In this document: positions 496 through 46,130 of the stretch, piece after piece
How the letters are laid out: the number at the start of each line of letters is the position of its first letter
How positions within the stretch are numbered: the stretch's first letter is position 1
Source: Candidatus Omnitrophota bacterium
GTDB taxonomy: Bacteria > Omnitrophota > Omnitrophia > Omnitrophales > Aquincolibacteriaceae
NCBI GenBank assembly: GCA_023247055.1
Contig: JAHFHF010000003.1
Coordinates: forward strand, 36,367 to 100,366
Length of the DNA stretch: 64,000 nucleotides
Direction of reading: 5' to 3'
Program-made: the position numbers and the translations under genes
Notes under the pieces: model-generated
Databases searched by the model: none
What the model was told of the DNA's origin: nothing
What the model saw: the letters and a program-made list of their open reading frames with translations, nothing else

Positions 496-1914
496 ATGAA
501 TCGAAGAATGAACCCGTTTAACCGTATTTTTGGAGTGACGTTGATGACAACGCAGCTTTTGGCGTTGTTGATACAGCCCAACGCAGGCTGGGCGGCGCAG
601 CAGCCGGAAATTTTAAACAAGCTGGACCGCAAGATCGACCAGACGTTCCGGCCGCGCACGTTTTTTAATTACCGGATTAAAGCCAAAGTCGGCGGCCAAT
701 CGCGTTACCGGTTTGAATACCGTGACACCCTCAACCTGAATGATAGAACCTATGAAGACGACGCCATGAACCTTTTACGCAACCGCCTGAACCTTGATGT
801 GGGGTATTTGTCCGACAGCGGCGCCATACCCGCGCGTTTTTTTATTGAAGGCCAGGAAGCCCACGCGTTTACGGAAAGTGATGTTAACCAGACGAATGTG
901 TTTGTCAACGAAGTTGATTTGCGCCAGCTTTTCGTGGAATTGAAAAGCCCCTGGAAGAAAGCCCCGGTGACGGCCAAAGTCGGCCGCCAGGTTCTATCTT
1001 ATGGCGATGAGCGCTTTGTCGGCGGATTGGAATGGACCAATACGGCGCGAGTTTTTGACGCCATTAAATTGGTGTACACCCCGAATCCGCAGATCCAGTT
1101 GGATGCTTTTGCCTCGAACGTGGTCAAAATCGAAAAAGAAAAATGGGACCAGGCCACCAACAGCGACGATTTTTACGGCTTGTATCTCAGCACCAAGCCG
1201 TTTAAAAAATCGATGGACCAGGTGCTGGACAGCTTTCTTTTCATCCGTCACAACGATGACCGGACGCTTGCGGGCGAAAACAGCAAGCGCGGAGAGCTCA
1301 AAGAGTACACCTTCGGCAACCGTTTCAAAGGCAAAAAACTGGACTGGGATTACGGCACGGAGTATGCGGTCCAGCTCGGCAGCCGTTCCCACGATGAAAT
1401 CCAGGCCTGGGCCTTTCACCAGGAATTGGGCTATACGATTTCTAAACTGCCGTGGACTCCAAGAATCTACGGTGAATACAACCACGCGTCGGGTGACCGC
1501 AATCCTACGGACGGAAAATTCCAGACCTTTGACAATCTTTTTCCGACGAACCATAACAAATACGGGTACATCGATTTGATCTCGCTGAAAAATATCAACG
1601 ATTACATGATCGGGGCCAGCGTGAAGCCCCATACGCGCCTATTTTTTTCCGCGGACTTCCACTGGTTTGTACTCGATGCCAAAGAATCCGCTTGGTTTAA
1701 TGTCGCGGGCGCGGGGGGAACGGTGCGCGCCGCCAACGCCAATGCCGACGAGCATCTTGGCAATGAAATTGATTTGCTGGCCACGTATCAACTGACCGCG
1801 CGTGTGGGACTTTTAGCGGGCTACTCGCATTTTTTTGCCGGCCCTTTTGCCAAAGACACGGGAGCGCACGACGATGCCAACCTTCTCTATCTTCAAACCA
1901 CTGTTAATTTTTAA
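496..1914 (+). CDS. Outer-membrane beta-barrel porin (alginate-export/AlgE-like family)
   Basis: N-terminal signal peptide (MNRRMNPFNRIFGVTLMTTQLLALLIQPNAGWAA). Alternating amphipathic beta-strand pattern throughout. Aromatic C-terminal residue (…LQTTVNF), typical of outer-membrane proteins. First gene of the nitrate transport cluster. Confidence 0.5.
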   Translation: MNRRMNPFNRIFGVTLMTTQLLALLIQPNAGWAAQQPEILNKLDRKIDQTFRPRTFFNYRIKAKVGGQSRYRFEYRDTLNLNDRTYEDDAMNLLRNRLNLDVGYLSDSGAIPARFFIEGQEAHAFTESDVNQTNVFVNEVDLRQLFVELKSPWKKAPVTAKVGRQVLSYGDERFVGGLEWTNTARVFDAIKLVYTPNPQIQLDAFASNVVKIEKEKWDQATNSDDFYGLYLSTKPFKKSMDQVLDSFLFIRHNDDRTLAGENSKRGELKEYTFGNRFKGKKLDWDYGTEYAVQLGSRSHDEIQAWAFHQELGYTISKLPWTPRIYGEYNHASGDRNPTDGKFQTFDNLFPTNHNKYGYIDLISLKNINDYMIGASVKPHTRLFFSADFHWFVLDAKESAWFNVAGAGGTVRAANANADEHLGNEIDLLATYQLTARVGLLAGYSHFFAGPFAKDTGAHDDANLLYLQTTVNF

Positions 1915-2086
1915 CTTATGCATCGCGGCCCTGATTTTTTTGACGCTTCATCCGCAGCAGCCGGTCGGCAGGCAAGAGCCGGTCAAAAAAGTCAAACCAA
2001 TCACTGTTTTTAAAATTACCGGGCTCGTTTGAGCCGGAAAGAAAGAGGATAACTTATGAAAATATTTTTTGAGAAAATAAAGAGCT

Positions 2087-2183
2087 TTTGTCATTGCGAG
2101 TCCCGCGGGCATTTGAAGGGCGAAGCAATCTCGTTTTTGAAAGCGGGATTGCTTCGCTCCCTTCGGTCGCTCGCAATGACGGG
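2087..2183. repeat. MITE-like inverted-repeat element (GTCATTGCGAG … CGAAGCAATCTC family) overlapping the nrtA start
   Basis: Terminal inverted repeats ttgtcattgcgag (2087) and ctcgcaatgac (2171-2181). Internal inverted pair gggcgaagcaatctcg / gggattgcttcgctccc. The same words recur at more than 10 sites in the window. Confidence 0.7.
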
Positions 2184-3474
2184 CTTTGCTATTTTGATAT
2201 CTACGGCTGTTTTTGCCGCCGAACTGGAAAAAGAAGAGCTTACGCTGGGCATCATCAAGCTGACCGACTGCGCCCCGATCGTCATCGCCAAGGAAAAAGG
2301 CTTTTTTGAAGACGAAGGTCTGTCCGTCAAAGTCGAAGCCCAGGCCAATTGGAAAGTCCTCATGGACCGCGTCATCGACGGCCAGCTAGACGGTTCGCAC
2401 ATGCTGGCAGCCGCGCCGCTAGGGCACACGGACGGTCTTCTGACCAAAGCGCACATTGTTGTTCCGTATGTCATGGCGGAAAACGGCGCCGGAATCTCAG
2501 TCTCGAATGAAGTTTGGGAGCACATGAAACAGAATATTCCTCTGCAGCCTGATGGAAAGCCGGTCCACCCGATCAGCGCAAGCGCGATGAAACCGATGGT
2601 TGAAGAGTTTAAAAATGAAGGCAAACCCTTTAAATTGGCCATGACCTACCCAGTTGGAACGCATAATTACTCCTTTCGCTACTGGCTTGCGGCGGGAGGA
2701 ATTCACCCCGGCTATTATACAGCCACCGACACCAATGGTTTCACCGACGGCGATGTCCAACTTTCAGTGACGCCGCCGCCTCAGATGCCCGCGGTGCTGC
2801 AGTCGGGCACCGTACAAGGCGTCTGCGTCAACGAGCCCTGGCATACGCAGATTTCCACCCGTGGCATCGGCATGCCGGTGACCTCCAGCTATTGGTATCA
2901 CCGTGGGCTTCCCGATAAGGTCTTCGGTGTCACAAAAGAATGGGCGGACAAAAATCCCAACACGCTCAAAGCCGTTGTGCGCGCCCTGATGCGCGCCGGT
3001 AAATGGCTTGATGAAAGCAAAAAGAACCGGCGCGAAGCCAGCATTATTCTTTCCCAGCCGCAGTATGTGGGCGCGGACCCCGAAATTATTGCCCGCATGC
3101 TGATGGGATCGTTCGGCTACGGTGAAGACGATATCCGTGAAGAACCGGATTGGGACGTGTTTAACCGTGATTTTTCAACTTATCCGTATTATTCCGGCGC
3201 CATTTGGTGGCTCACGCAAGTCCGCCGCTGGGGCCAGCTCGAATCAAAGCCCGATGAATGGTACATCGAACTCGCTAAGAAAGTTTACCGCCCCGATCTT
3301 TGGGAAGCGGCTGCCAAAGAATTGGTTGCGGAAGGCAAGATGACCGAAGCCGAAATCCCACAGACCGATGGCTTTAAAGCACTGCCGGCCGAGAATTTTA
3401 TCGACGGCATTGCTTTTGACGGCAAACAGCCAAATGCCTATCTGAAAAAATTTGCGATCGGAAAGAAGGACTAG
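2176..3474 (+). CDS. nrtA: Nitrate/nitrite ABC transporter periplasmic substrate-binding protein (NrtA/CmpA family)
   Basis: LTLGIIKLTDCAPIVIAKEKGFFEDEGL and the overall NrtA architecture. Start chosen at ATG 2176 (MTGFAILISTAVFAA signal/anchor). The listed ORF start 2056 lies inside a repeat element. Confidence 0.8.
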   Translation: MTGFAILISTAVFAAELEKEELTLGIIKLTDCAPIVIAKEKGFFEDEGLSVKVEAQANWKVLMDRVIDGQLDGSHMLAAAPLGHTDGLLTKAHIVVPYVMAENGAGISVSNEVWEHMKQNIPLQPDGKPVHPISASAMKPMVEEFKNEGKPFKLAMTYPVGTHNYSFRYWLAAGGIHPGYYTATDTNGFTDGDVQLSVTPPPQMPAVLQSGTVQGVCVNEPWHTQISTRGIGMPVTSSYWYHRGLPDKVFGVTKEWADKNPNTLKAVVRALMRAGKWLDESKKNRREASIILSQPQYVGADPEIIARMLMGSFGYGEDDIREEPDWDVFNRDFSTYPYYSGAIWWLTQVRRWGQLESKPDEWYIELAKKVYRPDLWEAAAKELVAEGKMTEAEIPQTDGFKALPAENFIDGIAFDGKQPNAYLKKFAIGKKD

Positions 3475-3477
3475 AAC

Positions 3478-3903
3478 ATGTCATTCTCGCATTTGCGCGG
3501 AGGCAAATACGATCATGCATGTGATTGTTGATCCCATGTCATTCTCGTCATTGTCCCAACGCCGATGCGTTGAGACTATAAACGACTTGAAATTTGAGTT
3601 TTCCCATCATTGCGGGCATAAAGGTTAAAAAGTGTTGCTGTTTTTTAGCGAATGCTGAAGTAATCTCAGATCAAAAACGAGATTGCTTCGCCCTTAAACA
3701 TCACCGGCTCGCAACGACAAAAATAAGTGCAATGGCAGGCCCTATTCGAATCGAATCTATTATTCGAGAAAAGATCATAACGGACGTCACCTTTATTTTG
3801 TCATTGCGGGCAGTGTTCAATTTGAGGCCGAAGCAATCTCGGTTGCTCTTGAGATTGCTCCGCCGCACGCTAAAAAGCAGCACACGCCCGCAATGTCGAG
3901 ACA
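3478..3903. repeat. Cluster of at least 4 copies or fragments of the GTCATT(G/C)(C/T)GAG / GAAGCAATCTC inverted-repeat family filling the nrtA-nrtB intergenic region
   Basis: tcattctcgc (3481), gtcattctcgtcattgtcc (3538), tcattgcgggc…gagattgcttcgccc (3609-3695), ttgtcattgcgggc…cgaagcaatctc…gagattgctcc…gcccgcaatg (3797-3897). The listed ORF 3594..3923 consists entirely of these repeats. Confidence 0.7.
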
Positions 3904-3933
3904 GTGGACAAACATACAACTGAGGAAAATTCT

Positions 3934-4956
3934 ATGACAGAAAAAATAATTGGCGTGATGAGAATAGCCGGTTTTAACGTGTTTGTGCCGGTCATCCGGC
4001 TGATTCAGGGCGAGAACCGCGATGAACAACTGAAACTTTTGTGGCGGACTATCGGCATCCAGGGCGTGACGCTTGGGGTTTTCCTTGGGCTCTGGGCGCT
4101 CATCGCACCGCAGATTAAAACCAACCTGGGCCAGGTGCCAGGCCCGGCCCAGGTTTGGGAGCAGATTCAAAGTCTGAGCCTGGAGTATCGGATGGAAACC
4201 AAAAACCGCAAGGCGTTTGCGGTCACGGAAAAAGCGCGCGTGGAGCAAAAACGCGCGGAAAATCCGGGCCTGGAAGTCAAGATGCGCCGCTACAGCGGCC
4301 GGCCCACGTTCTTGGACCAAATCTTTACCAGTCTGGTCACGGTTTTTACCGGTTTCCTGCTGGCTTCGCTGGTGGCGATTCCGCTCGGCGTGCTTTGCGG
4401 TCTGAACCGGACCCTGATGAGCGCGCTCAATCCGCTGATCCAAGTATTCAAACCGGTCTCACCCGTAGCCTGGCTGCCGATCGTGACCATGGTGGTCAGC
4501 GCCGTTTACACCGTGCCGCAGCCCTGGCTGGAAAAAGCGTTTATCATTTCCGCCATCACCGTTTCGCTTTGCGCGATCTGGCCGAGCCTGATTAATACGG
4601 CGCTGGGCGTGGCGTCTATTGATAAAGACTACATCAATGTCGCGCGGGTTTTAAAACTGAAATTTTCGACCAAGATTTTCAAGATCGTGCTGCCGGCCGC
4701 GCTCCCGTACATTTTTACGGGCTTGCGGATTTCCTTAGGGGTAGGCTGGATGGTACTGATTGCGGCGGAACTTCTTTCGCAAAATCCTGGACTCGGAAAA
4801 TTTGTCTGGGACGAATTTCAAAACGGCAGCAGCCAATCCTTGGCGCGCATCATGGTCGCGATTTTTACCATCGGTCTGATCGGGTTCATTCTCGACCGCA
4901 TCATGGTGACTTTGCACAAATGGGTTAGTTTCGGCCACGGCACTGCCGGGGCTTAA
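3934..4956 (+). CDS. nrtB: Nitrate ABC transporter permease (NrtB family)
   Basis: Polytopic membrane protein with the ABC-permease signature region (…[12 protein letters not shown]…). RBS GAGGAA lies upstream of ATG 3934. Downstream of nrtA. Confidence 0.75.
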
Positions 4957-5082
4957 ATCTCGGACATGTCATCCTCGCCTCTGCGTGGAAGCAGAGACTA
5001 GGATGCGCATCTCTGTTGGAGCTGTGTCATCCTCGAATGCTTTTATCGAGGATCTAAAGCATTAGATTCCCGCTAGAAGCAT

Positions 5083-5210
5083 GCGGGAATGACACAACGC
5101 CAACAGCGTTGCGCATGACCGTCTCGGTCTCCGCACAGAGGCGGGAATGACACAACGCCAACAGCGTTGCGCATGACCGTCTCGGTCTCCGCACAGAGGC
5201 GGGAATGACA
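5083..5210. repeat. 58-bp tandem direct repeat, 2.2 copies
   Basis: The unit gcgggaatgacacaacgccaacagcgttgcgcatgaccgtctcggtctccgcacagag begins at 5083 and 5141, and a partial copy begins at 5199. Each unit contains the hairpin caacgc-caaca-gcgttg and the reverse-oriented GTCATTCCCGC word. Confidence 0.85.
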
Positions 5211-5233
5211 AAATACGACAAGGAGAAGGTTTC

Positions 5234-6079
5234 GTGGCATTTCTTGAACTGAAAAATGTTTCAAAGGGGTTCGGCGAAGGCGCGAAGCGCGTATCCGTGC
5301 TCAAAGATATTGATCTTTGTGTGGAAGAAGGCGAGTTTGTGGTCATCCTGGGTTTTTCGGGCACGGGCAAAACGACGCTGATTTCTTTGATCGCCGGACT
5401 GCTTGCGGCCGATCAAGGCGAGATTCTGTTGAAGGGAAAACCGATTGTCGAACCCGGGCCGGACCGGGGCGTGATTTTTCAAAATTATGCACTGCTGCCG
5501 TGGCTGACGGTTTACGGCAACGTCGCGCTGGCGGTCAACTATCTCTTCCGCGATTGGCCGGAAGAAAAACGCCGGCAGCATATCGAAAAATACATTGAGA
5601 TGGTCCATTTGACGCCCGCAACCCTGAAACGCCCTGCTGAACTCTCCGGCGGCATGCGCCAGCGTGTTTCCGTGGCGCGCACGCTCGCCATGAATCCTGA
5701 GATTCTGCTCATGGATGAACCCTTGAGCGCGCTCGATGCGCTGACGCGCGGCACGCTGCAGGGCGAAATCGAAAAAATCTGGGAAGAAAACCGCAAAACG
5801 GTTGTTTTGATCACCAATGATATCGATGAGGCCATTCTTTTGGCCGACCGCATTATTCCGCTCAAGCCGGAAGCCGAAGGCGCTTCGCTGGGCCCGGCCT
5901 TTGACGTGCGCCTGCCGCGGCCCCGTGACAAAGACAATTTCAATCACGATGCAGAATACCGCCGCCTGCGCACTGAAATCACACGTTATTTTTTAGAGTT
6001 GCAGTCTTTGAGGCGCGTCGAACAGACGGCGGAAACGATCGTGCTTCCCGAACTCAAACCCGTTTCATTGGCAGGCTGA
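5234..6079 (+). CDS. nrtC: Nitrate ABC transporter ATP-binding protein (short NrtD-like)
   Basis: Walker [13 protein letters not shown] signature LSGGMRQR, Walker B ILLMDEP. GTG start preceded by AGGAGAAGG. Confidence 0.8.
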
Positions 6080-7783: not shown

Positions 7784-10225
7784 ATGGAACAAAAGCATTT
7801 AGTCGTGGTGGGGGATGGCATGGCCGGCATGTCGTGTGTCGACCAAATTCTTAAACGAAAGCCGAATTTTAAAATTACGGTCTTAAGCGAAGAAACCTAT
7901 TACAACTACAACCGCATCTTGCTTTCCTGCGTGCTCGCGGGCGAAAAGACCGTCGATGAAATTTATATCAATACCAAAGCATGGTATGACGAACATGGCA
8001 TTGAACTTCTTTTAGGCGTCAAAGCCGTTGACGTGGATGCCAAAAACAAAATTGTTTTTACCGCCGATAACCGTCAGATTTCCTACGACCTGCTGCTCTT
8101 AGCCACGGGCAGTAACCCCTTTATTCCGCCGATTGCCGGTATCCAAAAAGATGGTGTGGTTACCTATCGCAATATGGCCGACACCGAAGAGATTATCAAA
8201 CGCTGTGAAACCGCCAAGCATGCGGTGGTGATCGGCGGCGGGCTTTTGGGACTGGAGGCCGCGCGCGGCACCTCCAGCCGGGGCGTGCATACGACGGTGG
8301 TGCACATCATGGACCGTTTGATGGACATGCAGCTTGATGAAGTCGGCGGCCAGTTTTTGAAACGTGAAATCGAGAAACTCGGCATCACCGTGCTTTTGAA
8401 TGCGAACACCGCCGAAATCATGGGCGATTCCAAGGTCGAAGGCGTCAGCTTCAAAGACGGCAATGCCGTGAAAGCGGACATGGTCGTGGTGGCCTGCGGC
8501 ATCCGTCCCAATGTCGAACTCGGTAAAAAAGCGGGTTTGAAAATTAACCGCGGCATTGTGGTCAACGATCACATGGAAACCAGCGACCCTTCCATTTTTG
8601 CGGTGGGCGAATGCGTTGAGCATCGCGAAAAAATTTACGGGTTGGTTGCGCCGCTCTATGACCAAGGCAAAGTGTTGGCTGCCACCATCACGGGAGATAA
8701 AGGGCCCGTGTACGAAGGTTCGGTCTTGGCGACCAAACTCAAAGTCATGGGCATTGAACTTTTTTCAGCCGGCGATTTTAAGGCGCTCGACTCCGACAAA
8801 GAAGTGGTCTCGTATCAAGACCATGCTTTTGGCGTTTACAAAAAAGTCGTGGTGTATGCTAACTGGGTCGTGGGCACGATTTTGATCGGGGATACCTCGG
8901 ATGCCAATCGTTTGCTGGAAATGATCCGCAAGCAGGAGAAAGTTACGGACAACCGGCAGCATTTGCTTTTTCAAAAACCGCCGGCTGTGGCCGGCTCGCC
9001 TTCCGATGTTATGTCCCGTCCGGACACGGACACCATCTGCGGCTGCATCGGCGTCAGCAAGGGGCAAATTCTTTCCGCCATCAAAGAGCAAAGCTGCAAA
9101 ACCGTTTCGCAAGTCAAAGCCTGCACCAAAGCATCTTCGGGCTGCGGCACTTGCGCCGGGCTTGTTCAGGATATTTTAGTCGCGGCATTGGGTTCTGAAT
9201 TCCAGGAAGAAAAAAAAGACACCCTGTGCGCCTGCGTGCCTTTTCCTAAAGAAAAACTCCGCACCATGATTCAAACCCAGAAATTAAAATCCGTGCAGGA
9301 TGTTTTGGACATTTACGGCAACGGCGCAGGCTGTTCGTATTGCAAACCGGCGTTGAGTTTTATTGTCGACGAAGTGCATTGCGGCGATCACAAAGAAGAC
9401 CGCTCGGCGCGGTTTATCAATGACCGCGTGCACGCCAACATTCAACGCGACGGCACTTTTTCTGTGATTCCGCGCATGCACGGCGGTGTGACCAGCCCGC
9501 AGCAGCTCCGCAAAATTGCGGATGTGGCGGAAAAATACAACGTGCCCATGGTCAAGGTCACGGGCAGCCAGCGCATTGACCTTCTGGGCATCAAAAAAGA
9601 AGACCTGCCCAAAGTTTGGGCCGACCTGGATATGAAATCCGGCCATGCTTATGCCAAAGCCGTGCGCATGGTCAAATCCTGCGTGGGTACGGACTTTTGC
9701 CGTTACGGCACGCAAAACTCGATTGCGACGGGCATCCAGCTCGAAACGCTTTTGGAAGGTCTTTACACCCCGGGCAAAGTCAAGATGGGCGTTGTCGGCT
9801 GTCCGCGCAACTGCGCAGAGGCCACGGTTAAAGACATCGGTCTTGTCGGCATCGAAGGCGGCTGGCAAGTCGTGATCGGCGGCGCTGCCGGTAAAGTCGT
9901 CCGCGCCGCAGATATTTTAACCACGGTCAAGACCACCGAAGAAGCTTTGGAAGCGGCACTGCTCTTTTTTCAGTATTACCGGGAAAACGGGGAGTATCTG
10001 GAACGCACTTATGATTTTGTCGAACGCGCGGGACTTGAAAAAATCCGCCGCGAAACCATTCTTGCTTCCGAAGAAACCAAAAAAGGCCTGCTCGAGCGCT
10101 TGAACAAAGCCAGGGCTAAAGCGGTCGATCCGTGGAAGGAAGCCTCCAAGCCCGTTCATCCCATGCAGTTCAAAGATTTTGTGCTGCCCAAAGACGCGGA
10201 AGCTTTGATCGGAGGCCTGTCATGA
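7784..10225 (+). CDS. nirB: Assimilatory nitrite reductase [NAD(P)H] large subunit
   Basis: N-terminal FAD/NAD-binding VVVGDGMAGMS. BFD-like [2Fe-2S] DTICGCIGVSKGQILSAI. C-terminal siroheme/4Fe-4S nitrite-sulfite reductase domain. 813 aa. Confidence 0.9.
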   Translation: MEQKHLVVVGDGMAGMSCVDQILKRKPNFKITVLSEETYYNYNRILLSCVLAGEKTVDEIYINTKAWYDEHGIELLLGVKAVDVDAKNKIVFTADNRQISYDLLLLATGSNPFIPPIAGIQKDGVVTYRNMADTEEIIKRCETAKHAVVIGGGLLGLEAARGTSSRGVHTTVVHIMDRLMDMQLDEVGGQFLKREIEKLGITVLLNANTAEIMGDSKVEGVSFKDGNAVKADMVVVACGIRPNVELGKKAGLKINRGIVVNDHMETSDPSIFAVGECVEHREKIYGLVAPLYDQGKVLAATITGDKGPVYEGSVLATKLKVMGIELFSAGDFKALDSDKEVVSYQDHAFGVYKKVVVYANWVVGTILIGDTSDANRLLEMIRKQEKVTDNRQHLLFQKPPAVAGSPSDVMSRPDTDTICGCIGVSKGQILSAIKEQSCKTVSQVKACTKASSGCGTCAGLVQDILVAALGSEFQEEKKDTLCACVPFPKEKLRTMIQTQKLKSVQDVLDIYGNGAGCSYCKPALSFIVDEVHCGDHKEDRSARFINDRVHANIQRDGTFSVIPRMHGGVTSPQQLRKIADVAEKYNVPMVKVTGSQRIDLLGIKKEDLPKVWADLDMKSGHAYAKAVRMVKSCVGTDFCRYGTQNSIATGIQLETLLEGLYTPGKVKMGVVGCPRNCAEATVKDIGLVGIEGGWQVVIGGAAGKVVRAADILTTVKTTEEALEAALLFFQYYRENGEYLERTYDFVERAGLEKIRRETILASEETKKGLLERLNKARAKAVDPWKEASKPVHPMQFKDFVLPKDAEALIGGLS

Positions 10226-10626: not shown

Positions 10627-12318
10627 ATGGACGAATTTAATCTGATCGATTTGCTCGACTCGAGCGGCCTTCCGCTCAAAAATCGGATCAGCAAAGAAGG
10701 CTATTACAACCCCCGCCCGGAGAAGGCCATAGCGCCGGCCGCTGACGTTCTCATTCCTACAGCCCCCCTCGAACAAGGCGAACAATACCGTTTCCATTTT
10801 GACATGTCCTTGTGCATCGGCTGCCAATGCTGCGTTGTTGCCTGCAACGAACAGAACAACAATCCTGCCGAGGTGAATTGGCGGCGGGTCGGCGAAATCG
10901 AAGGCGGTATTTATCCTGACACTAAACGCTACCATCTTTCGATGGCCTGTAATCATTGTTTGGATCCGTCCTGCCTGGAGGGTTGTCCGACAGACGCTTA
11001 CATCAAACTTGAAAACGGGATTGTTCAACACCAGGCCGATGAATGCATCGGCTGCGGCTACTGCACCTGGAACTGTCCCTACGGTGTTCCGCAATACAAT
11101 ACGGAACGCAACATCGTGACCAAATGCGATATGTGTCACAGCCGTCTTAAAGAAGGGCAGCTGCCGGCCTGTGTGGCCGCCTGCCCGGAAGGCGCGATCA
11201 AAATTGAAAAAGTCAATGTGGCCGAGTGGCGCGAAAACCATGCGCAAGCGAACGCTCCTTATGTGCCCGATTCCGGCATGACGCTTTCCACCACGCGGAT
11301 CACATTGCCTGAAAATGTGCCCGACGATTTGCTGCGTGCCAACCGGCACCGGATTGAACCCGAAAAGCCGCACACTTCGCTCATCTTGATGACGGTTTTG
11401 ACCCAGCTGGCCGCCGGCGGCTTCATGACGCTCTGGCTGCTGGAGTTTTTTGCCCGCTGGGTTAATTTTTTGAAACCGCTGCAGGGTTTTCTTCCTTATG
11501 GCGCGGCCGGTATGCTTGCGATGACGGGCCTGGCGCTTGTCACGGCAGTTTTCCACCTGGGCCGTCCATTGCATGCCTACAAAGCCCTGCGGATGTGGAA
11601 GCGTTCCTGGCTTTCGCGCGAAGTGCTCTTCTTTGCGCTTTTTTCCAAGGCCGGCGCCGCTTATGCCGGGCTGGAACTGGCCCGGCATTTTTTAGGATGG
11701 AATATTCCGGACAACGCCATGACGCTGCTAGGAGCGGCCGTGGTGCTCACGGGGTTGGCGGGCGTGTATGCGAGCGCAAAAATCTACATGGTACCGGCAC
11801 GGCCGGCTTGGAACACGATCCGCACGCCGCTGCGCTTTTTTTTGACGGGCTTTATTTTGGGGCCTTTGTTTGCCCTCGTAGTTTACAGCCTGTATGGGGT
11901 TCTTCAAATCCATGAGCCGCTCAGTGCCGCGATCAAAGGCCCGGTGTTTGTTTTTCTTGCGGTTTCGGCGATTGCTGGTTTTTTTCAGATGGCCGTGCTT
12001 CTATCGAGACTCTTTTCCATGCCCTGGGAAGAGTTCAATGAACTGCATGCCTCGAGTTTTCTCTTGCTGCACCGTTTCAAAAATCTTTTTGTCCTGCGGC
12101 TGGCGGCCCTTGTTCTCGGTTCTTTTATCTGTCCCTTTGCCCTGTTTGCGGCATTGCAGCCGGATGCTTTGCAGGGGGGAATCTTTTTGGGCCTGGGTTC
12201 CGTGTGTTTTCTTTTTTCGCTGGCCGGTGAATTTTTAGGCCGGTATTTGTTTTTCGTCACCGTGGTTCCTAAAAATATGCCGGGCTCGTTTTTTGCGGCC
12301 CAAGGCGGCAGCCATTGA
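10627..12318 (+). CDS. Fusion protein: DmsB/NrfC-type 4x[4Fe-4S] ferredoxin domain + NrfD/PsrC-like polytopic membrane (quinol-interacting) domain
   Basis: Four Cys clusters (CIGCQCCVVAC, CNHCLDPSCLEGCP, CIGCGYCTWNCP, CDMCHSRL…CVAACP) followed by about 280 aa with 8 or more hydrophobic helices. Lies immediately upstream of nasA and is translationally coupled to it. Confidence 0.65.
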   Translation: MDEFNLIDLLDSSGLPLKNRISKEGYYNPRPEKAIAPAADVLIPTAPLEQGEQYRFHFDMSLCIGCQCCVVACNEQNNNPAEVNWRRVGEIEGGIYPDTKRYHLSMACNHCLDPSCLEGCPTDAYIKLENGIVQHQADECIGCGYCTWNCPYGVPQYNTERNIVTKCDMCHSRLKEGQLPACVAACPEGAIKIEKVNVAEWRENHAQANAPYVPDSGMTLSTTRITLPENVPDDLLRANRHRIEPEKPHTSLILMTVLTQLAAGGFMTLWLLEFFARWVNFLKPLQGFLPYGAAGMLAMTGLALVTAVFHLGRPLHAYKALRMWKRSWLSREVLFFALFSKAGAAYAGLELARHFLGWNIPDNAMTLLGAAVVLTGLAGVYASAKIYMVPARPAWNTIRTPLRFFLTGFILGPLFALVVYSLYGVLQIHEPLSAAIKGPVFVFLAVSAIAGFFQMAVLLSRLFSMPWEEFNELHASSFLLLHRFKNLFVLRLAALVLGSFICPFALFAALQPDALQGGIFLGLGSVCFLFSLAGEFLGRYLFFVTVVPKNMPGSFFAAQGGSH

Positions 12319-14522
12319 AAAATTTTTTAAAACCCATCAAGAAACGCCTCGGCCTGGACATTCAAAAGGACAAATATGCCTACGGTCTGGATGAGCAGTT
12401 CGGCTATTTGTCCAAGGCGAAAATTCCGGACCGCTGGGTCGCTACGACTTGCGGCTACTGTTCGGTCGGGTGCGGGATGCTGATCGGAGTAAAGGCCGGC
12501 AAGCCGGTCAGCGTGCGCGGCCATGCAGATCATCCCGTGAATGAAGGCATGCTTTGCCCCAAAGGATTGGCTGAACATTATGCCATTACCGCGCCGAACC
12601 GCGCGCAATGGCCGCTCTTGAAAGACACCAAGGGCCGTTTTCAAAGAGTGACGTGGGATGCGGCCATCCAAACGCTTGTGGCGAAATTCCGCGCCATTCA
12701 AAATCAATACGGACCGGAGGCTTTGGGGGTCATCAGTACGGGCCAGCTTGTGACCGAAGAGTTTTACACCCTTGGAAAATTGGTCCAGCTTGGGTTCGGC
12801 ACAAAAAATTATGACGGCAATACGACGCTTTGCATGTCGAGCGCCGTGGCGGGGTACAAACGCTCGTTTGGCAGCGACGGGCCGCCGGGGAATTACGAAG
12901 ACCTGGAAAAAGCGGACTTGGTTTTTCTGATCGGCGCCAATATTGCGGACAATCATCCCATCTTGTGCTACCGTCTTGAAAAAAACCTGAAAAAAACCGT
13001 CATCGTTGCGGACCCGCGCGTGACGAAAACCGCCATGATGGCCGATCTTTTTCTGCCCGTGAAACCGCGCAGCGATATTGCGCTGCTCAACGGCATCATG
13101 CATTGGATCATCAAGGCCGGCAAGGCGAACCAGGATTATATTCAGAAACATACGCAGGGTTTTGCGGAATTGCGCGCGCATCTTGAGAAATATACGCTCG
13201 ATTACGTCAGCGGCGTCACAGGCCTGCCGGTCCAGCAAATCCAAAAAACGGCGCAGCTTTATGCGGAAGCCAAAGCGCCTTTTATCGGCTGGACCATGGG
13301 CGTCAATCACAGCACGCAGGGCACGGAAACCGTGAACACGATCTGCAACCTGGCTTTGATCACCGGCAATATCGGCCGGATCGGCGCGGCGCCGTTTTCC
13401 ATCACCGGCCAATGCAATGCCATGGGCACGCGCGAATCGGGATTTGCGTCAAGCCTGCCCGGCTACCGCAAATTTGAAGAGGCGGGCCACCGGGCCGAAC
13501 TGGCCCAATTGTGGAATGTGGATGAAGAAATCATTCCCAAGGCCCGCGGCCTGGCCTATCCCGATATTATCGAGGCCGTGCTGAGCGGAAAAATTAAAGG
13601 GCTGTGGATCATTGCCACCAACCCGCTGGTGTCGTTTCCCAACCAAAATTATCTCAAAGAAGTTTTGAGCCGGCTGGATTTTCTCGTGGTTCAGGACGGC
13701 TATCACCCCATTCCCACTTCAGAGATCGCGCATCTGGTTTTGCCGGCGGCCGTGTGGGGTGAGAAAGAAGGCACGTATACGAATTCCGAGCGCCGTGTGA
13801 GCAAAGTGAATAAAGCGGTCGAGCCTCCGGGGCAGGCCAAATCGGATTTTGATATTTTTCTTGCCATCGCCGAAGCGCTGGGCGTGTCCGGAAAACTTTT
13901 TCCCGGCTGGACCAAGCCGGAAGATGCTTTCGAAGAATGGAAAAAAGTCTCGCGCAGCCGGCTTTGTGATTATTCAGGTATGACGTATGAATTACTCGAG
14001 CAAATTGGCGGGATTCAATGGCCCTACTCGCTGGATCAGCCGCGGGATGCCGCGCAAACTTATCCGCTGTATCAAGACGGCGTTTTTCAAACCGCGGACG
14101 GCCGCGCCAAACTTTGGGTGGTCGAAAATGAAGCGCCGCCGGAAGTCCCGAATACCGAGTATCCCTTTTGGCTCAACACCGGCAGGACCGTCGAGCATTG
14201 GCATACGCGCACCAAGACCGGGCAGATCCCGCTATTGAACCGTCTGTCGCCGGAAGCCTGGGTTGAGATGAATACGCGCGATGCGCTGAAACTCAAAATT
14301 AAACACGGCGATTACGTTCGCGTGGACTCCCGCCGAGGCGCGATCGACCGCATCGTCGTGCGTGTGACGGAAACCGTGGCGCCCGGGCAAGTGTTCATTC
14401 CGTTTCATTTTGCGGAAGCCAATGCCAACAATTTGACCGTCAATAGCTGCGATCCCTATTCGCGCGAACCGAACTACAAGCAGGCTGCCGTCCAAATCCG
14501 CAAAGCGGATTCGAAACTTTAA
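12315..14522 (+). CDS. nasA: Assimilatory nitrate reductase catalytic subunit (molybdopterin oxidoreductase, NasA/NarB type)
   Basis: N-terminal [4Fe-4S] motif CGYCSVGCGM…GMLCPKG. 735 aa. No twin-arginine signal. TTG start overlaps the upstream stop. Confidence 0.8.
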   Translation: MKNFLKPIKKRLGLDIQKDKYAYGLDEQFGYLSKAKIPDRWVATTCGYCSVGCGMLIGVKAGKPVSVRGHADHPVNEGMLCPKGLAEHYAITAPNRAQWPLLKDTKGRFQRVTWDAAIQTLVAKFRAIQNQYGPEALGVISTGQLVTEEFYTLGKLVQLGFGTKNYDGNTTLCMSSAVAGYKRSFGSDGPPGNYEDLEKADLVFLIGANIADNHPILCYRLEKNLKKTVIVADPRVTKTAMMADLFLPVKPRSDIALLNGIMHWIIKAGKANQDYIQKHTQGFAELRAHLEKYTLDYVSGVTGLPVQQIQKTAQLYAEAKAPFIGWTMGVNHSTQGTETVNTICNLALITGNIGRIGAAPFSITGQCNAMGTRESGFASSLPGYRKFEEAGHRAELAQLWNVDEEIIPKARGLAYPDIIEAVLSGKIKGLWIIATNPLVSFPNQNYLKEVLSRLDFLVVQDGYHPIPTSEIAHLVLPAAVWGEKEGTYTNSERRVSKVNKAVEPPGQAKSDFDIFLAIAEALGVSGKLFPGWTKPEDAFEEWKKVSRSRLCDYSGMTYELLEQIGGIQWPYSLDQPRDAAQTYPLYQDGVFQTADGRAKLWVVENEAPPEVPNTEYPFWLNTGRTVEHWHTRTKTGQIPLLNRLSPEAWVEMNTRDALKLKIKHGDYVRVDSRRGAIDRIVVRVTETVAPGQVFIPFHFAEANANNLTVNSCDPYSREPNYKQAAVQIRKADSKL

Positions 14523-14524: not shown

Positions 14525-14620
14525 GCTCGTCATGCTGAGTTCGAGATGTGTTTTTGTCATCCTGAGTCGCTTGAGTACTCTCAAGACGGCGAAGGATCTC
14601 AGAGCCGAGGCTCAAAAGGA
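14525..14620. repeat. GTCAT(C/G)CTGAG-family repeat copies between nasA and narK
   Basis: cgtcatgctgagttcgag, ttgtcatcctgagtcgc…ggcgaaggatctcagagc. Confidence 0.6.
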
Positions 14621-18632: not shown

Positions 18633-19169
18633 GTGCCGACATCAAATTGTCTGACCTATGAAACGATCGACGCCCGGACGTTTATAACCACGGGTGAAGC
18701 TGCGGGTACGGCAGGAGGCACCGTTCTTTTTTTTGGAATAGTCCGCAATCAAGCGCTGCAGCGACAGGTCACGCATTTAGTCTATGAGGCCTACGAGCCG
18801 CTGGCCGAACGGATGATCGATGAACTTATTTCAAAAGCCATGCGCATTTGGCCTCTTTTGCGCATTCAGGTTTTGCACCGGCTTGGACGCGTTGAGGCGG
18901 GTGAAATCGCTGTTGCGATTGAAGTCATCAGCAAACACCGCGATGAAGCTTACAAAGCCTCGCGCTTTTTAATCGACCAGATTAAGACCGATGTGCCTGT
19001 GTGGAAAAAAGAATATTTTGAAGACGGGTCTTACCGCTGGGGCCAGTGCGAGCACAAAACCGTAGCGGCCGGTCGCGACCGGCCACTACTTGACGGTACG
19101 CGTCATTGCGAGTCCACGGAAGCTGTTATGGCGGACGAAGCAATCTCAGGGCATGACATAGGGACGTGA
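18633..19169 (+). CDS. moaE: Molybdopterin synthase catalytic subunit
   Basis: MoaE fold motifs (…FFGIVRN…HLVYEAYEP…KHRDEAY…PVWKKE). GTG start 18633 follows the moaD stop. The last ~15 codons are encoded by a GTCATTGCGAG repeat. Confidence 0.7.
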   Translation: MPTSNCLTYETIDARTFITTGEAAGTAGGTVLFFGIVRNQALQRQVTHLVYEAYEPLAERMIDELISKAMRIWPLLRIQVLHRLGRVEAGEIAVAIEVISKHRDEAYKASRFLIDQIKTDVPVWKKEYFEDGSYRWGQCEHKTVAAGRDRPLLDGTRHCESTEAVMADEAISGHDIGT

Positions 19170-20518
19170 GAAATATGCTGGAACATCAAGAGGCGCTTGA
19201 AAAAATTTTTAAATTCTCAAAAACACTCCCCATCTCTCAAGTCCCCTTAGAAATGGCGTTGGGGCAGGTCTTGAGCAAAGACCTCCGCGCCTCCTTCCCA
19301 TTGCCTTCTTTCGATAATTCGGCGGTGGATGGTTATGCGCTGCGTTTCCCGGTTTGTCATTCTGAGCCCGGCAAGATTGGAGGGGCGAAGAATCTCAGAA
19401 CGAGATCCTTCGCTTCGCTTCCGCCACTAAAGCGTCGGCGGGCAAGCATGATGACAAATAATTTTACGCTCAAGGTCGCCGGAGAAATTGCGGCGGGTGC
19501 AAAAAATCCGCCCAAATTAATTCCCGGAACGGCCGCCCAGATTTTTACCGGTGCACCGGTCCCTGCCGGAACGGAAGCGGTGGTCATGCAGGAAAAGTGT
19601 GCTCGTGAAAATGGCCGTGTCCAATTTTCCGGCGCGCCCGTTCCGCTTGAAAATATCCGGTTCAAGGGCGAGGACATCCAAAAAGGGGAACTCCTTTTAA
19701 ACAAGGGAACAGTGTTAGGGGCGGCCCAGATTGGGCTTTTGGCCGCGGCCGGCTATGCGAAAGTTCCGGTCATTCGCAAACCGCAAGTGACAGTCCTGGC
19801 CACAGGCAATGAACTCAAAAAACCCGGAGAAAAAATAAAATCCGGTCAGATTTTTGATTCCAATACGCCGCTCTTGCGGGCACTTCTTGAGGAAAACGCA
19901 TGCGCCGTCTCTGCGCTGCCATCCGGCCGCGATTCTCGCGCCGCACTCCAAAGAAAAATCCGTCAAGGTCTCAAAGCCGATGTGTTTTTAATTGCCGGAG
20001 GCGTTTCCGTGGGGAAATACGACCTGGTCAAAGAGCTTTTGCGCGAAGCCGGGGTGCGCGAAATTTTTTGGAAGGTCAACATCAAGCCCGGCAAACCACT
20101 TTTTTTCGGCCGCAAAGGGAAAACGCTGGTCTTTGGCCTGCCGGGCAATCCAGTTTCCGTTTTTGTGACTTTTTCCGAGTATGTCAAACCCTGCCTTCAA
20201 AAGCTTCAAGGAAAAGCAGCGCACGCGGTTTTTGAAAAAGCAAAAATGGCTGCGGATTTTAAAAATGGCCCGCGCCGGCATTTTGTCCGCTGCGTGGTTG
20301 AGCAGGGGACTGCGGCGCCTCTCGCCGGGCAGGGGTCACACATGATTCGTTCGCTGGCGCAAGCCAATGCAATTTTGGAAGTTCCACCGAATGAATTCTT
20401 GCCTAAAAACCGGGAAGTGACTGTGAAATTGTTCGGTGAGCCTTTGCCAAGAAGTCTGTCGCATTCCGTAGTGGCAATTCATGAATTGCCACTACAAAAG
20501 GCAGTTCAAAAGCATTAA
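19166..20518 (+). CDS. moeA: Molybdopterin molybdotransferase carrying an in-frame ~105-bp repeat-element insertion
   Basis: DNSAVDGYALRF…IFTGAPVPAGTEAVVMQE…LPGNPVS. The insertion PVCHSEPGKIGGAKNLRTRSFASLPPLKRRRASMMTNN coincides with the repeat at 19353-19458. The C-terminal codons are supplied by a 28-bp palindrome. Confidence 0.8.
   Translation: MRNMLEHQEALEKIFKFSKTLPISQVPLEMALGQVLSKDLRASFPLPSFDNSAVDGYALRFPVCHSEPGKIGGAKNLRTRSFASLPPLKRRRASMMTNNFTLKVAGEIAAGAKNPPKLIPGTAAQIFTGAPVPAGTEAVVMQEKCARENGRVQFSGAPVPLENIRFKGEDIQKGELLLNKGTVLGAAQIGLLAAAGYAKVPVIRKPQVTVLATGNELKKPGEKIKSGQIFDSNTPLLRALLEENACAVSALPSGRDSRAALQRKIRQGLKADVFLIAGGVSVGKYDLVKELLREAGVREIFWKVNIKPGKPLFFGRKGKTLVFGLPGNPVSVFVTFSEYVKPCLQKLQGKAAHAVFEKAKMAADFKNGPRRHFVRCVVEQGTAAPLAGQGSHMIRSLAQANAILEVPPNEFLPKNREVTVKLFGEPLPRSLSHSVVAIHELPLQKAVQKH
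19353..19458. mobile_element. MITE-like element (TTGTCATTCTGAGC…GAAGAATCTC…GATCCTTCGCTTCGC…ATGACAAA) inserted in-frame inside moeA
   Basis: It shares termini and internal words with the intergenic copy at 56231-56313. It lies in a loop that is only ~10 aa long in ordinary MoeA proteins. Confidence 0.65.
20468..20495. repeat. 28-bp perfect palindrome GTAGTGGCAATTCATGAATTGCCACTAC (copy 1)
   Basis: Exact 14+14 bp inverted repeat. An identical copy is at 25690-25717. Confidence 0.9.
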
Positions 20519-23646: not shown

Positions 23647-23740
23647 ATTTGGGCAACAACTTGTTGCCCAAATCCCATGGGACCACAACCTTGTCATCAT
23701 TAACGGTGCCGGGGTGGTGCCTGGCACCACCCCGGCACCG
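23647..23740. terminator. Two consecutive strong hairpins between the convergent TauE and higA genes
   Basis: tttgggcaacaa-c-ttgttgcccaaa (23647-23671) and the perfect 18-bp-arm palindrome cggtgccggggtggtgcc|tggcaccaccccggcaccg (23704-23740). Confidence 0.45.
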
Positions 23741-23802
23741 TTCTATGACAATAGAGCCCGCGGTGCTCCGCACCGGCCCAGCACCAAAATACCGGAATTT
23801 TT

Positions 23803-24111
23803 TCAGGCAGCTTTTTTTGAGGGGCGGATATGAATTTCAATTTCGCCGCTAAGGGCATCGACGATCTTAACGAGTGTTTCCAGGCTTAAATTGGAAGCTT
23901 CGTCATTTTCAATCTTGGCAATAAACGGCTGTGTCGCGCCTATGCGCCGGGCTAATTCCGCCTGAGTTATTCCTAACATCTCACGCAATTCGATAATCTG
24001 ACTAATGACTTTTAGACGCTGGACTCCGGCTTCTATTTTTTGCCGAAAACGCTTATTTTTCAGCAAAGGCTTCATCAACTCAGCGTGTGAAGGAATTCTC
24101 ATGGGTTTCAT
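23803..24111 (-). CDS. higA: HTH XRE-family antitoxin (HigA-like), copy 1
   Basis: LREMLGITQAELARRIGATQPFIAKIENDE helix-turn-helix. Lies downstream of the toxin and overlaps it by 4 bp. Confidence 0.7.
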   Translation of the reverse strand: MKPMRIPSHAELMKPLLKNKRFRQKIEAGVQRLKVISQIIELREMLGITQAELARRIGATQPFIAKIENDEASNLSLETLVKIVDALSGEIEIHIRPSKKAA

Positions 24112-30085: not shown

Positions 30086-30137
30086 CGCGTAGCGTCATCC
30101 CCGAATGTCTTTGTCGGGGATCAGGAGAGAGAGTTAT

Positions 30138-31874: not shown

Positions 31875-31986
31875 AAAAAAGAGCGCCTTGTGACTCCGAT
31901 CACCGTAGGTCATTTGTCAGAATGACAAACGCAAATTTTTCTAAGCCAAGATTTTTAGGTTTAGGCATTAACGCCTCGTGTGAGTT

Positions 31987-41429: not shown

Positions 41430-41470
41430 TTAATTAAGCCGCGATTTCTCCTCTGTCTCCGTGCAGAGGT

Positions 41471-41530
41471 CGGGATGAGGGAAGAACATGTTTCCCCTCA
41501 TCCTAGCCTTCTCCCGGAGGGAGAAGGAAT
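41471..41530. repeat. Family-3 GC-hairpin repeat element, copy 2
   Basis: gggatgagggaagaacatgtttcccctcatcc + ccttctcccggagggagaagg, in the murQ-anmK spacer. Confidence 0.65.
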
Positions 41531-46117: not shown

Positions 46118-46130
46118 AGGGGGAAACACG

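Follow-up and report, generated by a model that had tools for sequence, protein, structure and literature searches.

About 19 units of one repeat superfamily lie within the 64-kb window (the whole stretch of DNA analyzed here), in and between genes that include nrtA, nrtB, nrtD, an ABC ATPase gene, moaE, moeA, nagZ, a YopX ORF and pckA. The first, inside nrtA, is a tag-outward dimer with an ATTGC foot (2089..2181) that folds at -56.6 kcal/mol (z -7.9). In the nrtA-nrtB spacer are two TGTCATTCTCG-headed units 58 nt apart (3479..3600, + strand), of which the first (3479-3537) is homologous to a 58-nt family and the second is degenerate, followed by a degenerate dimer, CATCATTGCGGG..GAAGTAATCTC / GAGATTGCTTCG..CTCGCAACGAC (3605..3719), and by a dimer of the ATTGC type with GGG replacing GAG (3799..3898, z -4.5), which stops 36 nt short of the nrtB start at 3934. 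Farther along come a unit of the 58-nt family with a TGTC tag, a ATCCTCGC arm and an inner hairpin CTCTGC/GCAGAG (4967..5025, + strand), a heterodimer of two units with 8-bp feet (ATCCTCGA/TCGAGGAT and ATTCCCGC/GCGGGAAT) and 9-nt loops (5025..5094, z -6.9), and a tandem array of 2.2 copies of the 58-nt family, 100% identical (5083..5210, - strand), whose end lies 24 nt ahead of the ABC ATPase start (5234). This 58-nt relative (3479-3537, 4967-5025, 5083-5210) has only the tag and the 5' arm in common with the main family.

The remaining copies are scattered. An orphan tag and arm (CGTCATGCTGAG) precedes a single unit with an ATCCT foot (14555-14600; together 14528..14600, + strand, z -4.1), with a Shine-Dalgarno sequence (SD) and ATG at 14629 directly after it; a single ATTGC-foot unit lies in the tail of the moaE ORF (19101..19147, + strand); and a heterodimer joining an ATTCT foot to a decayed ATCCT foot lies inside moeA (19355..19456). 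A single unit with an 8-bp foot, CGTC ATCCCCGA ATGTCTTTG TCGGGGAT CAG (30093..30124, + strand), again has an SD and ATG directly after it, at 30138, and a weak, short remnant, GGTCATT-TG-TCAGAATGACA (31908..31927), keeps both termini with the interior lost. Near nagZ, an orphan tag and arm (TGTCATCCTGAATC) is followed by an ATTCT-foot dimer (53547-53652; together 53526..53652, z -5.3) whose left unit has a short canonical loop. A single ATTGC-foot unit occupies 54173..54214 (- strand), and a heterodimer with an ATTCT foot and an ATCCT foot, the latter with a canonical GAGCGAAGCGA loop, lies between pckA and the next ORF (56231..56310, z -3.05). Possible relatives are a perfect palindrome of 20+20 nt set within TGTCAT…ATGACA (23692..23750) and two CCCTCATCC… units with a CCTC tag variant, their tags facing each other (41452..41524), which align weakly. 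The window also holds separate GTAG-N20-CTAC palindromes, at 19062-19089, 20468-20495 and 25690-25717.

The preliminary description of this DNA proposed a pervasive inverted-repeat family, and the family is real, with word and detector counts far above those of shuffled sequence. Counted with at most one mismatch, GTCATTGCGAG is found six times in the window against 1.45 expected, a count reached in none of 100 shuffles, and CGAAGCAATCTC occurs seven times against 0.44; the degenerate terminal block GTCAT[TC][GC][CT].. is found 28 times (3.75±2.0 expected), the internal block 17 times (5.8±2.3 expected), and a detector combining tag and foot helix returns 33 matches (6.3±2.7 in shuffles, with a shuffle maximum of 15). 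Every place originally listed holds copies or fragments, and chance low-complexity similarity is refuted because the copies can be aligned to a consensus whose termini they share. Rfam gave no covariance-model match at gathering score in the window, and below threshold only generic long-hairpin (plant miRNA precursor) models matched, none of them real by E-value either. The translated elements had no match in Pfam, nor did the 12 compared with NCBIfam at E up to 10 (the presence of an RPE model in that library being unchecked), and literature searches with the raw repeat words and translated peptides returned only primers and unrelated text.

In each unit an unpaired Y-GTC tag is followed by a foot helix, a conserved internal loop (GAG/CGA(A)), an inner hairpin and a tail, and the palindromic termini and internal inverted pair first described are correct. 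The foot is 5 bp long and starts with AT (ATTGC, ATTCT or ATCCT, the matching partner always present), the inner hairpin is freely variable (3-30 nt, with 11-30 nt between the foot arms in the main family), and the 3-nt tail is C(T/C)(C/A), observed in the window as CTC, CTA, CCC or CAG. Tags of the 19 window units are TGTC in 13, CGTC in five and a degenerate CATC in one. Most units belong to inverted, tag-outward dimers of 80-106 nt, seven of which occur in the window beside several singles, with spacers of 5-33 nt between units. In the alignment of copies (A2), all but one of the 16 distinct rows have A-U at pair 5/20, and every one has U-A at pair 6/19; the foot is 98.8% paired, with compensatory changes in three of its five pairs (19 cells), a level that none of 500 shuffles attained. 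Dimers fold with z = -2.6 to -7.9, and the heterodimers (56231-56310, 19355-19456, 5025-5094) pair perfectly within units and never perfectly between them. Since heterodimers and single units exist and foot pairs covary within halves, the real unit is the half and not the whole palindrome, and each unit is an autonomous stem-loop; the long palindrome formed by B1:B4 and B2:B3 pairing is ruled out as the functional unit by the same heterodimers and singles. Only the tag, foot and internal-loop blocks are conserved across copies, orthologues and phyla, and interiors are unrelated between copies.

Among the three functions offered at the outset (REP-like hairpins, MITEs or a protein-binding site), REP-like hairpins fit best, through their match to the CGTC-tagged REPs, families CGTC-1 to CGTC-4, of Di Nocera, De Gregorio and Rocco (2013, BMC Genomics 14:522, PMC3733652). 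By their account, these REPs have a tag that reads CGTC or, as variants, TGTC and CCTC, a stem that starts with AT (8-9 bp, with a 4-5 nt loop; Table 1) and an unpaired 3-nt tail of approximately CCA, and occur predominantly as HH dimers with 20-100 bp spacers, as well as singletons and intragenic copies, with no transposase; the superfamily includes Neisseria dRS3, a CGTC-1 member, and Rickettsia RPE-4 and RPE-6, which are CGTC-4 and CGTC-1 of R. conorii. The window units resemble them in the unpaired (C/T)GTC tag, the stem beginning and ending with AT, the 3-nt tail, the prevalence of inverted dimers, the unidirectional or convergent ORF contexts, the in-frame intragenic copies and the lack of a linked transposase. 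They differ in that the main family has a 5-bp Watson-Crick foot, a GAG/CGA(A) loop and an inner hairpin in place of the 8-9 bp stem and 4-5 nt loop of Table 1, 8-bp stems being found only at 5025-5094 and 30093-30124, where the loops are 9 nt; these units look like a sister type, CGTC-1-like, with an 8-bp foot and 9-nt loop. Some window spacers (5-33 nt) also fall below the published 20-100, and the translated peptides HCEE, SLRG, VIAS and LAMT are missing from the paper's list of intragenic REPs. Setting Figure 2 of that paper aside, the shorter bulged stem and large loops appear to be distinct from the four CGTC families it describes; its authors themselves note that their search could have missed members with a bulge or a short stem (PMC3733652).

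Other known repeats share some of these features. Rickettsia RPE-4 and RPE-6 are likewise short palindromes lying in frame in unrelated housekeeping genes, to which they add 8-30 residues, but have stems of 8-9 bp and of the VIPAKAGI and VIPRLDRGI types, and another host lineage. GTAG REPs and REPINs, which RAYT (Y1 HUH) transposases mobilize, have the same arrangement of tag, hairpin and tail, the inverted doublets forming long hairpins, the lack of target-site duplications and the operon-internal location; the window tag is, however, YGTC and not GTAG, and no unit-flanked RAYT gene was found here. We know of no RAYT gene flanked by YGTC-tagged units. Br-REP2 of Bradyrhizobium, located in 3'-UTRs and transcribed, with Bradyrhizobium and Rhodopseudomonas as its only described hosts (Hahn et al., 2016, PMC5082802), has a consensus that we read as TCATTCCGGGG…CCCGGAATC enclosing a loop that forms a hairpin of its own, a precedent for nested hairpins, although its foot sequence differs from that of the window units.

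In nrtA the dimer at 2089..2181 comprises 93 nt, or 31 codons (CHCESRGHLKGEAISFLKAGLLRSLRSLAMT), in frame, and separates the n-region MKIFFEKIKSF from the h-region GFAILISTAVFAA of the signal peptide; the start at 2056 is supported by the SD AAGAGGA and by the sequence MK(I/L)FFE(K/E), conserved in the orthologue P0122. In moeA the heterodimer at 19355..19456 comprises 102 nt, or 34 codons (C64-T97), likewise in frame; the insert is missing in E. coli MoeA and in the nearest MoeA homologue, and the AlphaFold2 model of MoeA has pLDDT <50 exactly over insert residues 65-97 and is confident elsewhere. These in-frame insertions, in a MoeA surface loop and in the NrtA signal peptide, are probably translated. 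In orthologues, the same positions of nrtA and moeA are occupied by other units, and two NrtA alleles, P0243 and P0242, compared at the protein level, share 98% identity across 435 aa, with a 68-aa repeat-coded insert as their difference. The nrtA-nrtB and nrtB-nrtD gaps, repeat-filled and 459 and 277 nt long in the window, shrink to 2 and 9 nt in the relative L125, and in L124 the moaE and moeA orthologues stand 15 nt apart with no unit between them. Copies are gained and lost among orthologous sites, and no target-site duplications accompany them; recent activity is suggested by the recurrence of different units at the same orthologous positions and by the insert that sets the 98%-identical NrtA alleles apart. 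Between the window and L125, all 42 block nucleotides at the shared nrtA site are identical and the loops are unrelated, while only 39% of four-fold-type third codon positions of nrtA agree; selection for a host function could account for the identical blocks equally well.

Flanks of the copies match directly in one of 57 cases at k=1 and in none of 57 at k=2 (inverted matches at k=1 number 48 of 57), so that target-site duplications are absent, and no parent IS was found. This weighs against classical MITEs, that is, deletion derivatives of DDE-transposase insertion sequences moved by cut-and-paste through terminal inverted repeats, a reading that we regard as highly improbable. It would be in keeping with the terminal inverted repeats GTCATTGCGAG/CTCGCAATGAC, the length of 73-117 nt, the dispersal and the conserved interiors of some dimers (those of L205), and bacterial MITEs such as Correia/NEMIS, ERIC and QMITE of Coxiella are also small, bounded by terminal inverted repeats, co-transcribed and occasionally fused in frame to an ORF. 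MITEs have, however, target-site duplications and whole-length similarity, and the window elements have neither, with short conserved blocks only and otherwise unrelated interiors; single units are common, each of them a hairpin, and no IS or transposase adjoins them.

Most copies, as first described, sit at gene boundaries, between co-directional cistrons and often directly before the next SD and ATG, but the picture of boundaries only missed the in-frame copy inside moeA. Copies survive where insertion is tolerated, namely between cistrons, at gene ends, and in frame in the MoeA loop and the NrtA signal peptide. Such placement might also reflect host- or phage-selected RNA elements, hairpins that punctuate operons and are kept by selection rather than selfish copying, and that would stabilize the cistrons up- or downstream, mark processing sites or tune translational coupling. 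We think this unlikely, even though nearly every copy lies between co-directional cistrons, in phage structural operons as in the window, unidirectional and convergent contexts outnumber divergent ones by 86 to 8 at genome loci, the hairpins are stable, the blocks at an orthologous site are identical despite saturated synonymous divergence, and the REPs of E. coli are an established case of REP-dependent mRNA stabilization (cited in PMC5082802 and PMC3733652). Against it, units occur in both orientations to transcription (48 sense vs 30 antisense) and in frame inside MoeA and the NrtA signal peptide, are gained or lost between 98%-identical alleles, and leave tight, element-free gene junctions in close relatives; sequence-specific conservation of unpaired blocks points to recognition by a protein, and the dimers are not terminator-like. 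A role as intrinsic terminators was considered and rejected: the stretch 1900-5400 has 8 terminator-like sites where 5.4±2.3 are expected, none coincides with a dimer hairpin, and no T run follows the dimers. Selected RNA elements and selfish REPs are compatible explanations.

The 20-nt signature is shared by at least 11 phyla, compared with the five of PMC3733652, and by no fewer than 120 stretches of IMG/VR viral contigs whose neighboring ORFs encode phage structural proteins, where units are co-oriented within contigs at 27:4. Its carriers include Bradyrhizobium, Pedobacter, Mucilaginibacter, Sphingomonas, Sporomusa and Helicobacter rodentium, and with these and the phage contigs the repeats are not special to uncultivated lineages, in some of which the preliminary description called similar word sets abundant. 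In 170 genome units the tag base is C in 105 (62%), T in 57 (34%) and another base in 8; the commonest tail is CCA(G) (CCA, for example, at L127 6505-6533), GCAAT followed by C+CAG being found in 63 of the 170 units across phyla, with CTC-type tails next. The genome loci include 31 exact dimers. Copies are nearly absent from the phage genomes deposited in INPHARED (3 records, Helicobacter canis prophage), and E. coli has none. In Neisseria, dRS3 is reportedly used by filamentous prophages, and IS110-family elements, like Nf prophages, are said to target REP or dRS3 repeats (cf. the title of Tobes and Pareja, 2006). The units might then be sites that a site-specific recombinase or an IS110-type element recognizes or attaches to, targets and not movers, for which the membership of dRS3 in CGTC-1 and the recurrence of different unit types at the same nrtA and moeA positions could speak; yet there is no integrase, IS110 gene or prophage junction beside the units in the window or in 240 loci, and the multiplication of the sites themselves is left unexplained, and we give this reading very little credence.

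We consider it likely that the elements are CGTC/TGTC-tagged REP units, mostly arranged as tag-outward inverted dimers (REPIN-like nested hairpins), and that they are selfish and copied in trans. By analogy with the RAYT and IS200-type HUH transposases that act on GTAG REPs, such non-autonomous selfish DNA would be copied through a single-stranded DNA hairpin intermediate by an enzyme that reads the tag and the hairpin foot. Since the units are co-transcribed with operons, their stable RNA hairpins probably have the further, secondary effect of altering how stable the mRNA is or how it is translated. No Y1/HUH or other transposase is present among the called genes on ~43 kb of the source contig (the calls begin ~8 kb upstream of the window and reach window position ~39,000, the stretch from ~39,000 to 51,000 having no precomputed calls). 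Nor does any protein family recur beside the units in 240 loci; the 120 genome loci have no recurrent neighbor, and at viral loci only phage structural proteins recur. An association with GIY-YIG nuclease genes was considered and not borne out, as no family recurs beside units in the 120 genome loci. Di Nocera et al. likewise report no transposase (PMC3733652), and because no enzyme was identified the copying mechanism is drawn by analogy only. A bolder and rather doubtful version of the selfish-REP explanation would make the ATTGC-foot CGTC unit a still-active, pan-bacterial, phage-borne hairpin replicator, copied without a dedicated linked transposase and repeatedly entering the same permissive codons, which would be those of the NrtA signal-peptide n/h junction and the MoeA loop. 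Its copier might be a ubiquitous host activity in single-stranded DNA processing or replication-repair, or a phage-encoded enzyme, and its 20-nt recognition blocks are identical in at least 11 phyla; if this were true the unit would generate in-frame insertions in proteins generally, far outside Rickettsia.

The existence of these repeats is not new, because the superfamily has been known since 2013. The variant in the window comes from a probable Omnitrophota-like metagenome-assembled genome, named homologues at 41-65% identity pointing to Candidatus Omnitrophica/Omnitrophota. Beyond the 2013 paper go this variant with a short foot, a bulge and a large loop, the occurrence of its signature in far more phyla and in IMG/VR viral contigs, the clean in-frame and probably translated insertions in a MoeA surface loop and a signal peptide, and the recognition blocks that stay identical amid saturated change. 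The polymorphic NrtA and MoeA sites, with the phage copies, are concrete places in which to seek the mobilizer of CGTC REPs. In the annotation of metagenome-assembled genomes, such repeats give rise to ORFs that are spurious, to start codons that are false and to N- or C-terminal tails that are artificial. The translated tails pointed out in the preliminary description are confirmed, with read-through into the nrtA, moaE, nagZ and YopX ORFs: the moaE ORF tail (…RHCESTEAVMADEAIS…) reads through the single unit at 19101..19147, nagZ continues through 53526..53652 to a stop at 53669, and the tag end GCAATGAC of the unit at 54173..54214 provides the ATG at 54209 that is called as the YopX start.

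The repeats constitute a real and well-defined family. With at most one mismatch allowed, GTCATTGCGAG occurs six times in the window against 1.45 expected and CGAAGCAATCTC seven times against 0.44, and no shuffle was as high for either word; degenerate forms that cover the variants gave 28 occurrences (3.75 ± 2.0 expected) for the terminal block, including its ATTCT and ATCCT versions, and 17 (5.8 ± 2.3 expected) for the internal one. A detector seeking a GTCAT where the 5-9 nt that follow its GTC recur, reverse-complemented, no more than 45 nt downstream returned 33 sites in the window versus 6.3 ± 2.7 (maximum 15) in Markov shuffles. Inspection of these sites left about 19 real units, present at each place where the preliminary description, made from sequence alone, had put its more than 12 copies, and an alignment of the window units shows shared termini.

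Each unit is built of a tag (a pyrimidine plus GTC), a 5-bp foot (ATTGC, ATTCT or ATCCT), GAG, a variable inner hairpin and CGA(A), the complementary foot (GCAAT, AGAAT or AGGAT), and a tail, C(T/C)(C/A). The functional unit is this half-element with a hairpin of its own, because foot pairing covaries, and because both heterodimers and single units exist. The feet are paired in 98.8% of cells, compared with 22-55% in slid controls, with two-sided changes in three of the five foot pairs (19 cells), a result reached by none of 500 shuffles. Dimers of 80-106 nt, made of two units with their tags outward, contain the majority of units and fold as long hairpins (folding z from -2.6 to -7.9), in agreement with the palindromic termini and internal inverted pair recognized earlier. 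Halves with unlike feet are combined at 56231-56310, 19355-19456 (in moeA) and 5025-5094, and units stand singly at 14555-14600, 19101-19147, 30093-30124 and 54173-54214.

No Rfam model matched the window at its gathering score, the sub-threshold matches being generic long-hairpin models only, and the translated repeat peptides matched nothing in Pfam or NCBIfam. Published work does describe such repeats, as the CGTC-tagged REPs defined in 2013 (Di Nocera, De Gregorio and Rocco; PMC3733652), which have a 3-nt tail approximating CCA, form mainly inverted “HH” dimers with spacers of 20-100 bp, lie between unidirectional or convergent ORFs but also in frame within genes, lack an associated transposase, and include RPE-4 and RPE-6 of R. 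conorii and dRS3 of Neisseria. The window units agree with these in tag, A-T foot, tail, dimers and want of a transposase, in keeping with the REP-like hairpins entertained in the preliminary description, but their stems and loops fall outside the sizes stated there (8-9 bp and 4-5 nt, respectively). The authors allow that their detection may have missed members with a short stem or a bulge, and the present family is therefore provisionally filed as a short-foot, large-loop variant within the known CGTC superfamily, set apart by those sizes and by the intragenic-REP table of the same paper, which lists the CGTC-1 peptides VIPAKAGI and SFPRKRES but not HCEE, SLRG, VIAS or LAMT of the window family.

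Every copy in the window lies within a string of co-directional genes, namely the nitrate uptake/assimilation cluster, the molybdenum-cofactor operon or the nagZ-NYN-YopX-pckA string, usually after a stop codon and before the next Shine-Dalgarno sequence (SD), in line with the reported concentration at gene boundaries. In a relative (L125), the nrtA-nrtB and nrtB-nrtD junctions are free of repeats and measure 2 and 9 nt, and the moaE-moeA junction of another (L124), also without repeats, 15 nt; the corresponding nrt gaps in the window are repeat-filled and span 459 nt (stop 3474 to called start 3934) and 277 nt. Placement between cistrons supports the main rival to copying in trans, namely that the repeats punctuate operons as RNA and are kept by selection; the two may well coexist. 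As a sole explanation, however, this rival has to contend with the occurrence of both orientations (48 sense and 30 antisense in the genome loci, by crude ORF calls), with intragenic copies, and with recent gain or loss. The read-through tails noted previously are confirmed: the moaE and nagZ ORFs run through units up to their own stops. Two dimers, in moeA (19355-19456) and nrtA (2089-2181), are intragenic and in frame. The called start of the YopX-domain ORF (54191-54643; a phage-type family, alone between an NYN/YacP gene and pckA) is an ATG within the tag end GCAATGAC, and because this ATG belongs to the repeat the true start is uncertain.

The moeA insert (102 nt) encodes MoeA codons C64-T97. 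Residues 72-73 are contiguous in the E. coli MoeA structure sequence where the window protein goes from 67 to 101, the 158 positions of Pfam MoeA_N are spread over 190 window residues, and the nearest homologue (P0002, 65% identical) has no insert. AlphaFold2 gives residues 65-97, between two confident strands, a pLDDT below 50, the only other low stretches being 281-284 and the C-terminal tail. Four further homologues (P0004, P0029, P0039 and P0082) carry superfamily units of their own, which in three cases occupy this loop.

The nrtA insert, of 93 nt or 31 codons, splits the NrtA signal peptide between MKIFFEKIKSF and the hydrophobic core, GFAILISTAVFAA; a good SD precedes the upstream start at 2056, and MK(I/L)FFE(K/E) is kept in an orthologue (P0122) 83% identical. 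At this junction of n- and h-regions P0122 has a decayed half, P0241 (encoded in L125) a full ATTGC dimer, P0125 a CGTC-1 unit (WIPAFAGMT) and P0243 a 68-aa cluster. Over 435 aa P0243 is 98% identical to P0242 and differs solely by the 68-aa insert, after MKSFM.N; units have thus been gained or lost at orthologous sites. At least four different superfamily inserts occur here in related lineages (P0121, P0122, P0125, P0241 and P0243 versus P0242; L123 1494-1570 and L125 3001-3140 at the DNA level), a recurrence that may reflect target preference or tolerance. Mature NrtA of the window and that of L125 share 88.5% identity, as against 50% at nrtA third codon positions and 39% at four-fold-type ones; at the shared insertion site the four element blocks (42 nt) are identical and the loops and centre unrelated, conservation being confined to the blocks. 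Strong constraint on the blocks or homogenization of the copies could possibly produce this pattern, but independent insertion of different family members at a hot spot is favoured because the unit types at the junction vary. The source MAG offers instructive in-frame insertions together with evidence of recent turnover.

The pattern GTCATTGCGAG-N4-30-GAAGCAATC was found in at least 120 stretches of species-representative genomes. Among the matches listed, 80 titled loci come from Alpha- and Gammaproteobacteria, Desulfobacterota, Bacteroidota, Chloroflexota, Cyanobacteria and Melainabacteria, Patescibacteria, Zixibacteria, Planctomycetota, Latescibacterota, Bacillota (Sporomusa) and Campylobacterota (Helicobacter rodentium); the most frequent form is (C)GTC-ATTGC-GAG-CGNAGC-GAA-GCAAT-CCAG, the commonest spacer is 6 nt (58 of 170 units), with 12 nt in second place, and the 31 exact dimers measure 73-117 nt and have unrelated centres. 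The inner GCGNAGC of this form resembles the d(GCGNAGC) DNA mini-hairpins, known for their high stability, and the likeness would suit folding as single-stranded DNA. No copies were found in E. coli and almost none in deposited phage genomes. The same pattern is present in at least 120 IMG/VR stretches, where adjacent ORFs cluster into families read from their sequences as putative phage structural proteins (portal, capsid, scaffold). Among the matches listed, viral-contig units lie between cistrons, frequently right before SD and ATG, and single units on one contig are co-oriented (27:4, p = 3e-5), which is compatible with a strand-specific process but also with a transcription-related role. 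Three of these contigs (L131, L143 and L164) each have 3-6 co-oriented single units between adjacent phage genes, often with SD and ATG next, antisense in L143 and sense in the other two. Tandem clustering of single units has been described as rare in CGTC REPs; another viral contig (L174, IMG/VR 3300002446_000392) has a 33-nt ATTGC unit, CGTCATTGCGAGCCTGCGAAGCAATCTGGT, in four head-to-tail copies at 2695-2818.

Target-site duplications, among the features to be checked according to the preliminary description, were not found, direct flank identity being 1/57 at k=1 and 0/57 at k=2; the inverted flank identity (48/57) is the tag base. No linked gene emerged: no protein family recurs beside the units in the genome loci, the putative phage structural proteins alone do so in the viral loci, and the genes called on about 43 kb of the source contig include no transposase. 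No promoter or terminator signature was detected at the repeats. For GTAG REPs and their RAYTs, single-stranded REP DNA is reported to be cut at its tag (as summarized in PMC3733652), and by analogy a trans-acting enzyme might recognize tag, foot and internal loop on single-stranded DNA. The polymorphic sites and phage copies are places at which the long-standing question of what mobilizes CGTC REPs could be addressed.

Two sister types have their tag in common with the main family: one with an 8-bp foot and 9-nt loop (5025-5094 and 30093-30124, with two further units on the same contigs just beyond the window), and a 58-nt family (3479, 4967 and 5083-5210). At the last of these sites 2.2 copies stand in tandem with a 58-bp period, and their 100% identity suggests very recent duplication. 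A perfect 20+20 nt palindrome between convergent ORFs (23692-23750; AACGGTGCCGGGGTGGTGCC/GGCACCACCCCGGCACCGTT, flanked by TGTCAT…ATGACA) may be a further member with another interior, and the inverted pair of CCCTCATCC… units at 41452-41524, tags face to face, may be the CCTC tag variant of Di Nocera et al. Three near-perfect 28-bp palindromes of the form GTAG-N20-CTAC look like GTAG-tagged REPs beside the CGTC type: one at 19062-19089, within the moaE tail, and two identical to each other (GTAGTGGCAATTCATGAATTGCCACTAC) at 25690-25717 and 20468-20495, the latter coding the low-confidence C-terminal tail VVAIHELPLQ of the MoeA ORF. Overlapping inverted repeats at the end of a pseudouridine synthase ORF (26494-26542; TCCGGGTTAAAATTGAACC/GGATCAATTTTAACCCGGA) are unrelated to the CGTC family.

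Positions 1-23500, together with the contigs L127 and L128, make up a large nitrate-assimilation and molybdenum-cofactor region, in which a GAF-ANTAR regulator and an alginate-export-like porin are followed by nrtA, a permease, two ATPases, a chlorite-dismutase-like ORF, a NirB-like nitrite reductase (7784-10225), Rieske and Fer4/DmsC proteins, a molybdopterin oxidoreductase (12315-14522) and, in order, moaA, moaD, moaE, moeA, mobB, mobA, moaC and mog. Toxin-antitoxin-like small gene pairs of Gp49/HTH_37 type lie at 23803-24476 and 51214-51887, and one of PhdYeFM/ParE type just upstream of the window (L127 6623-7227).
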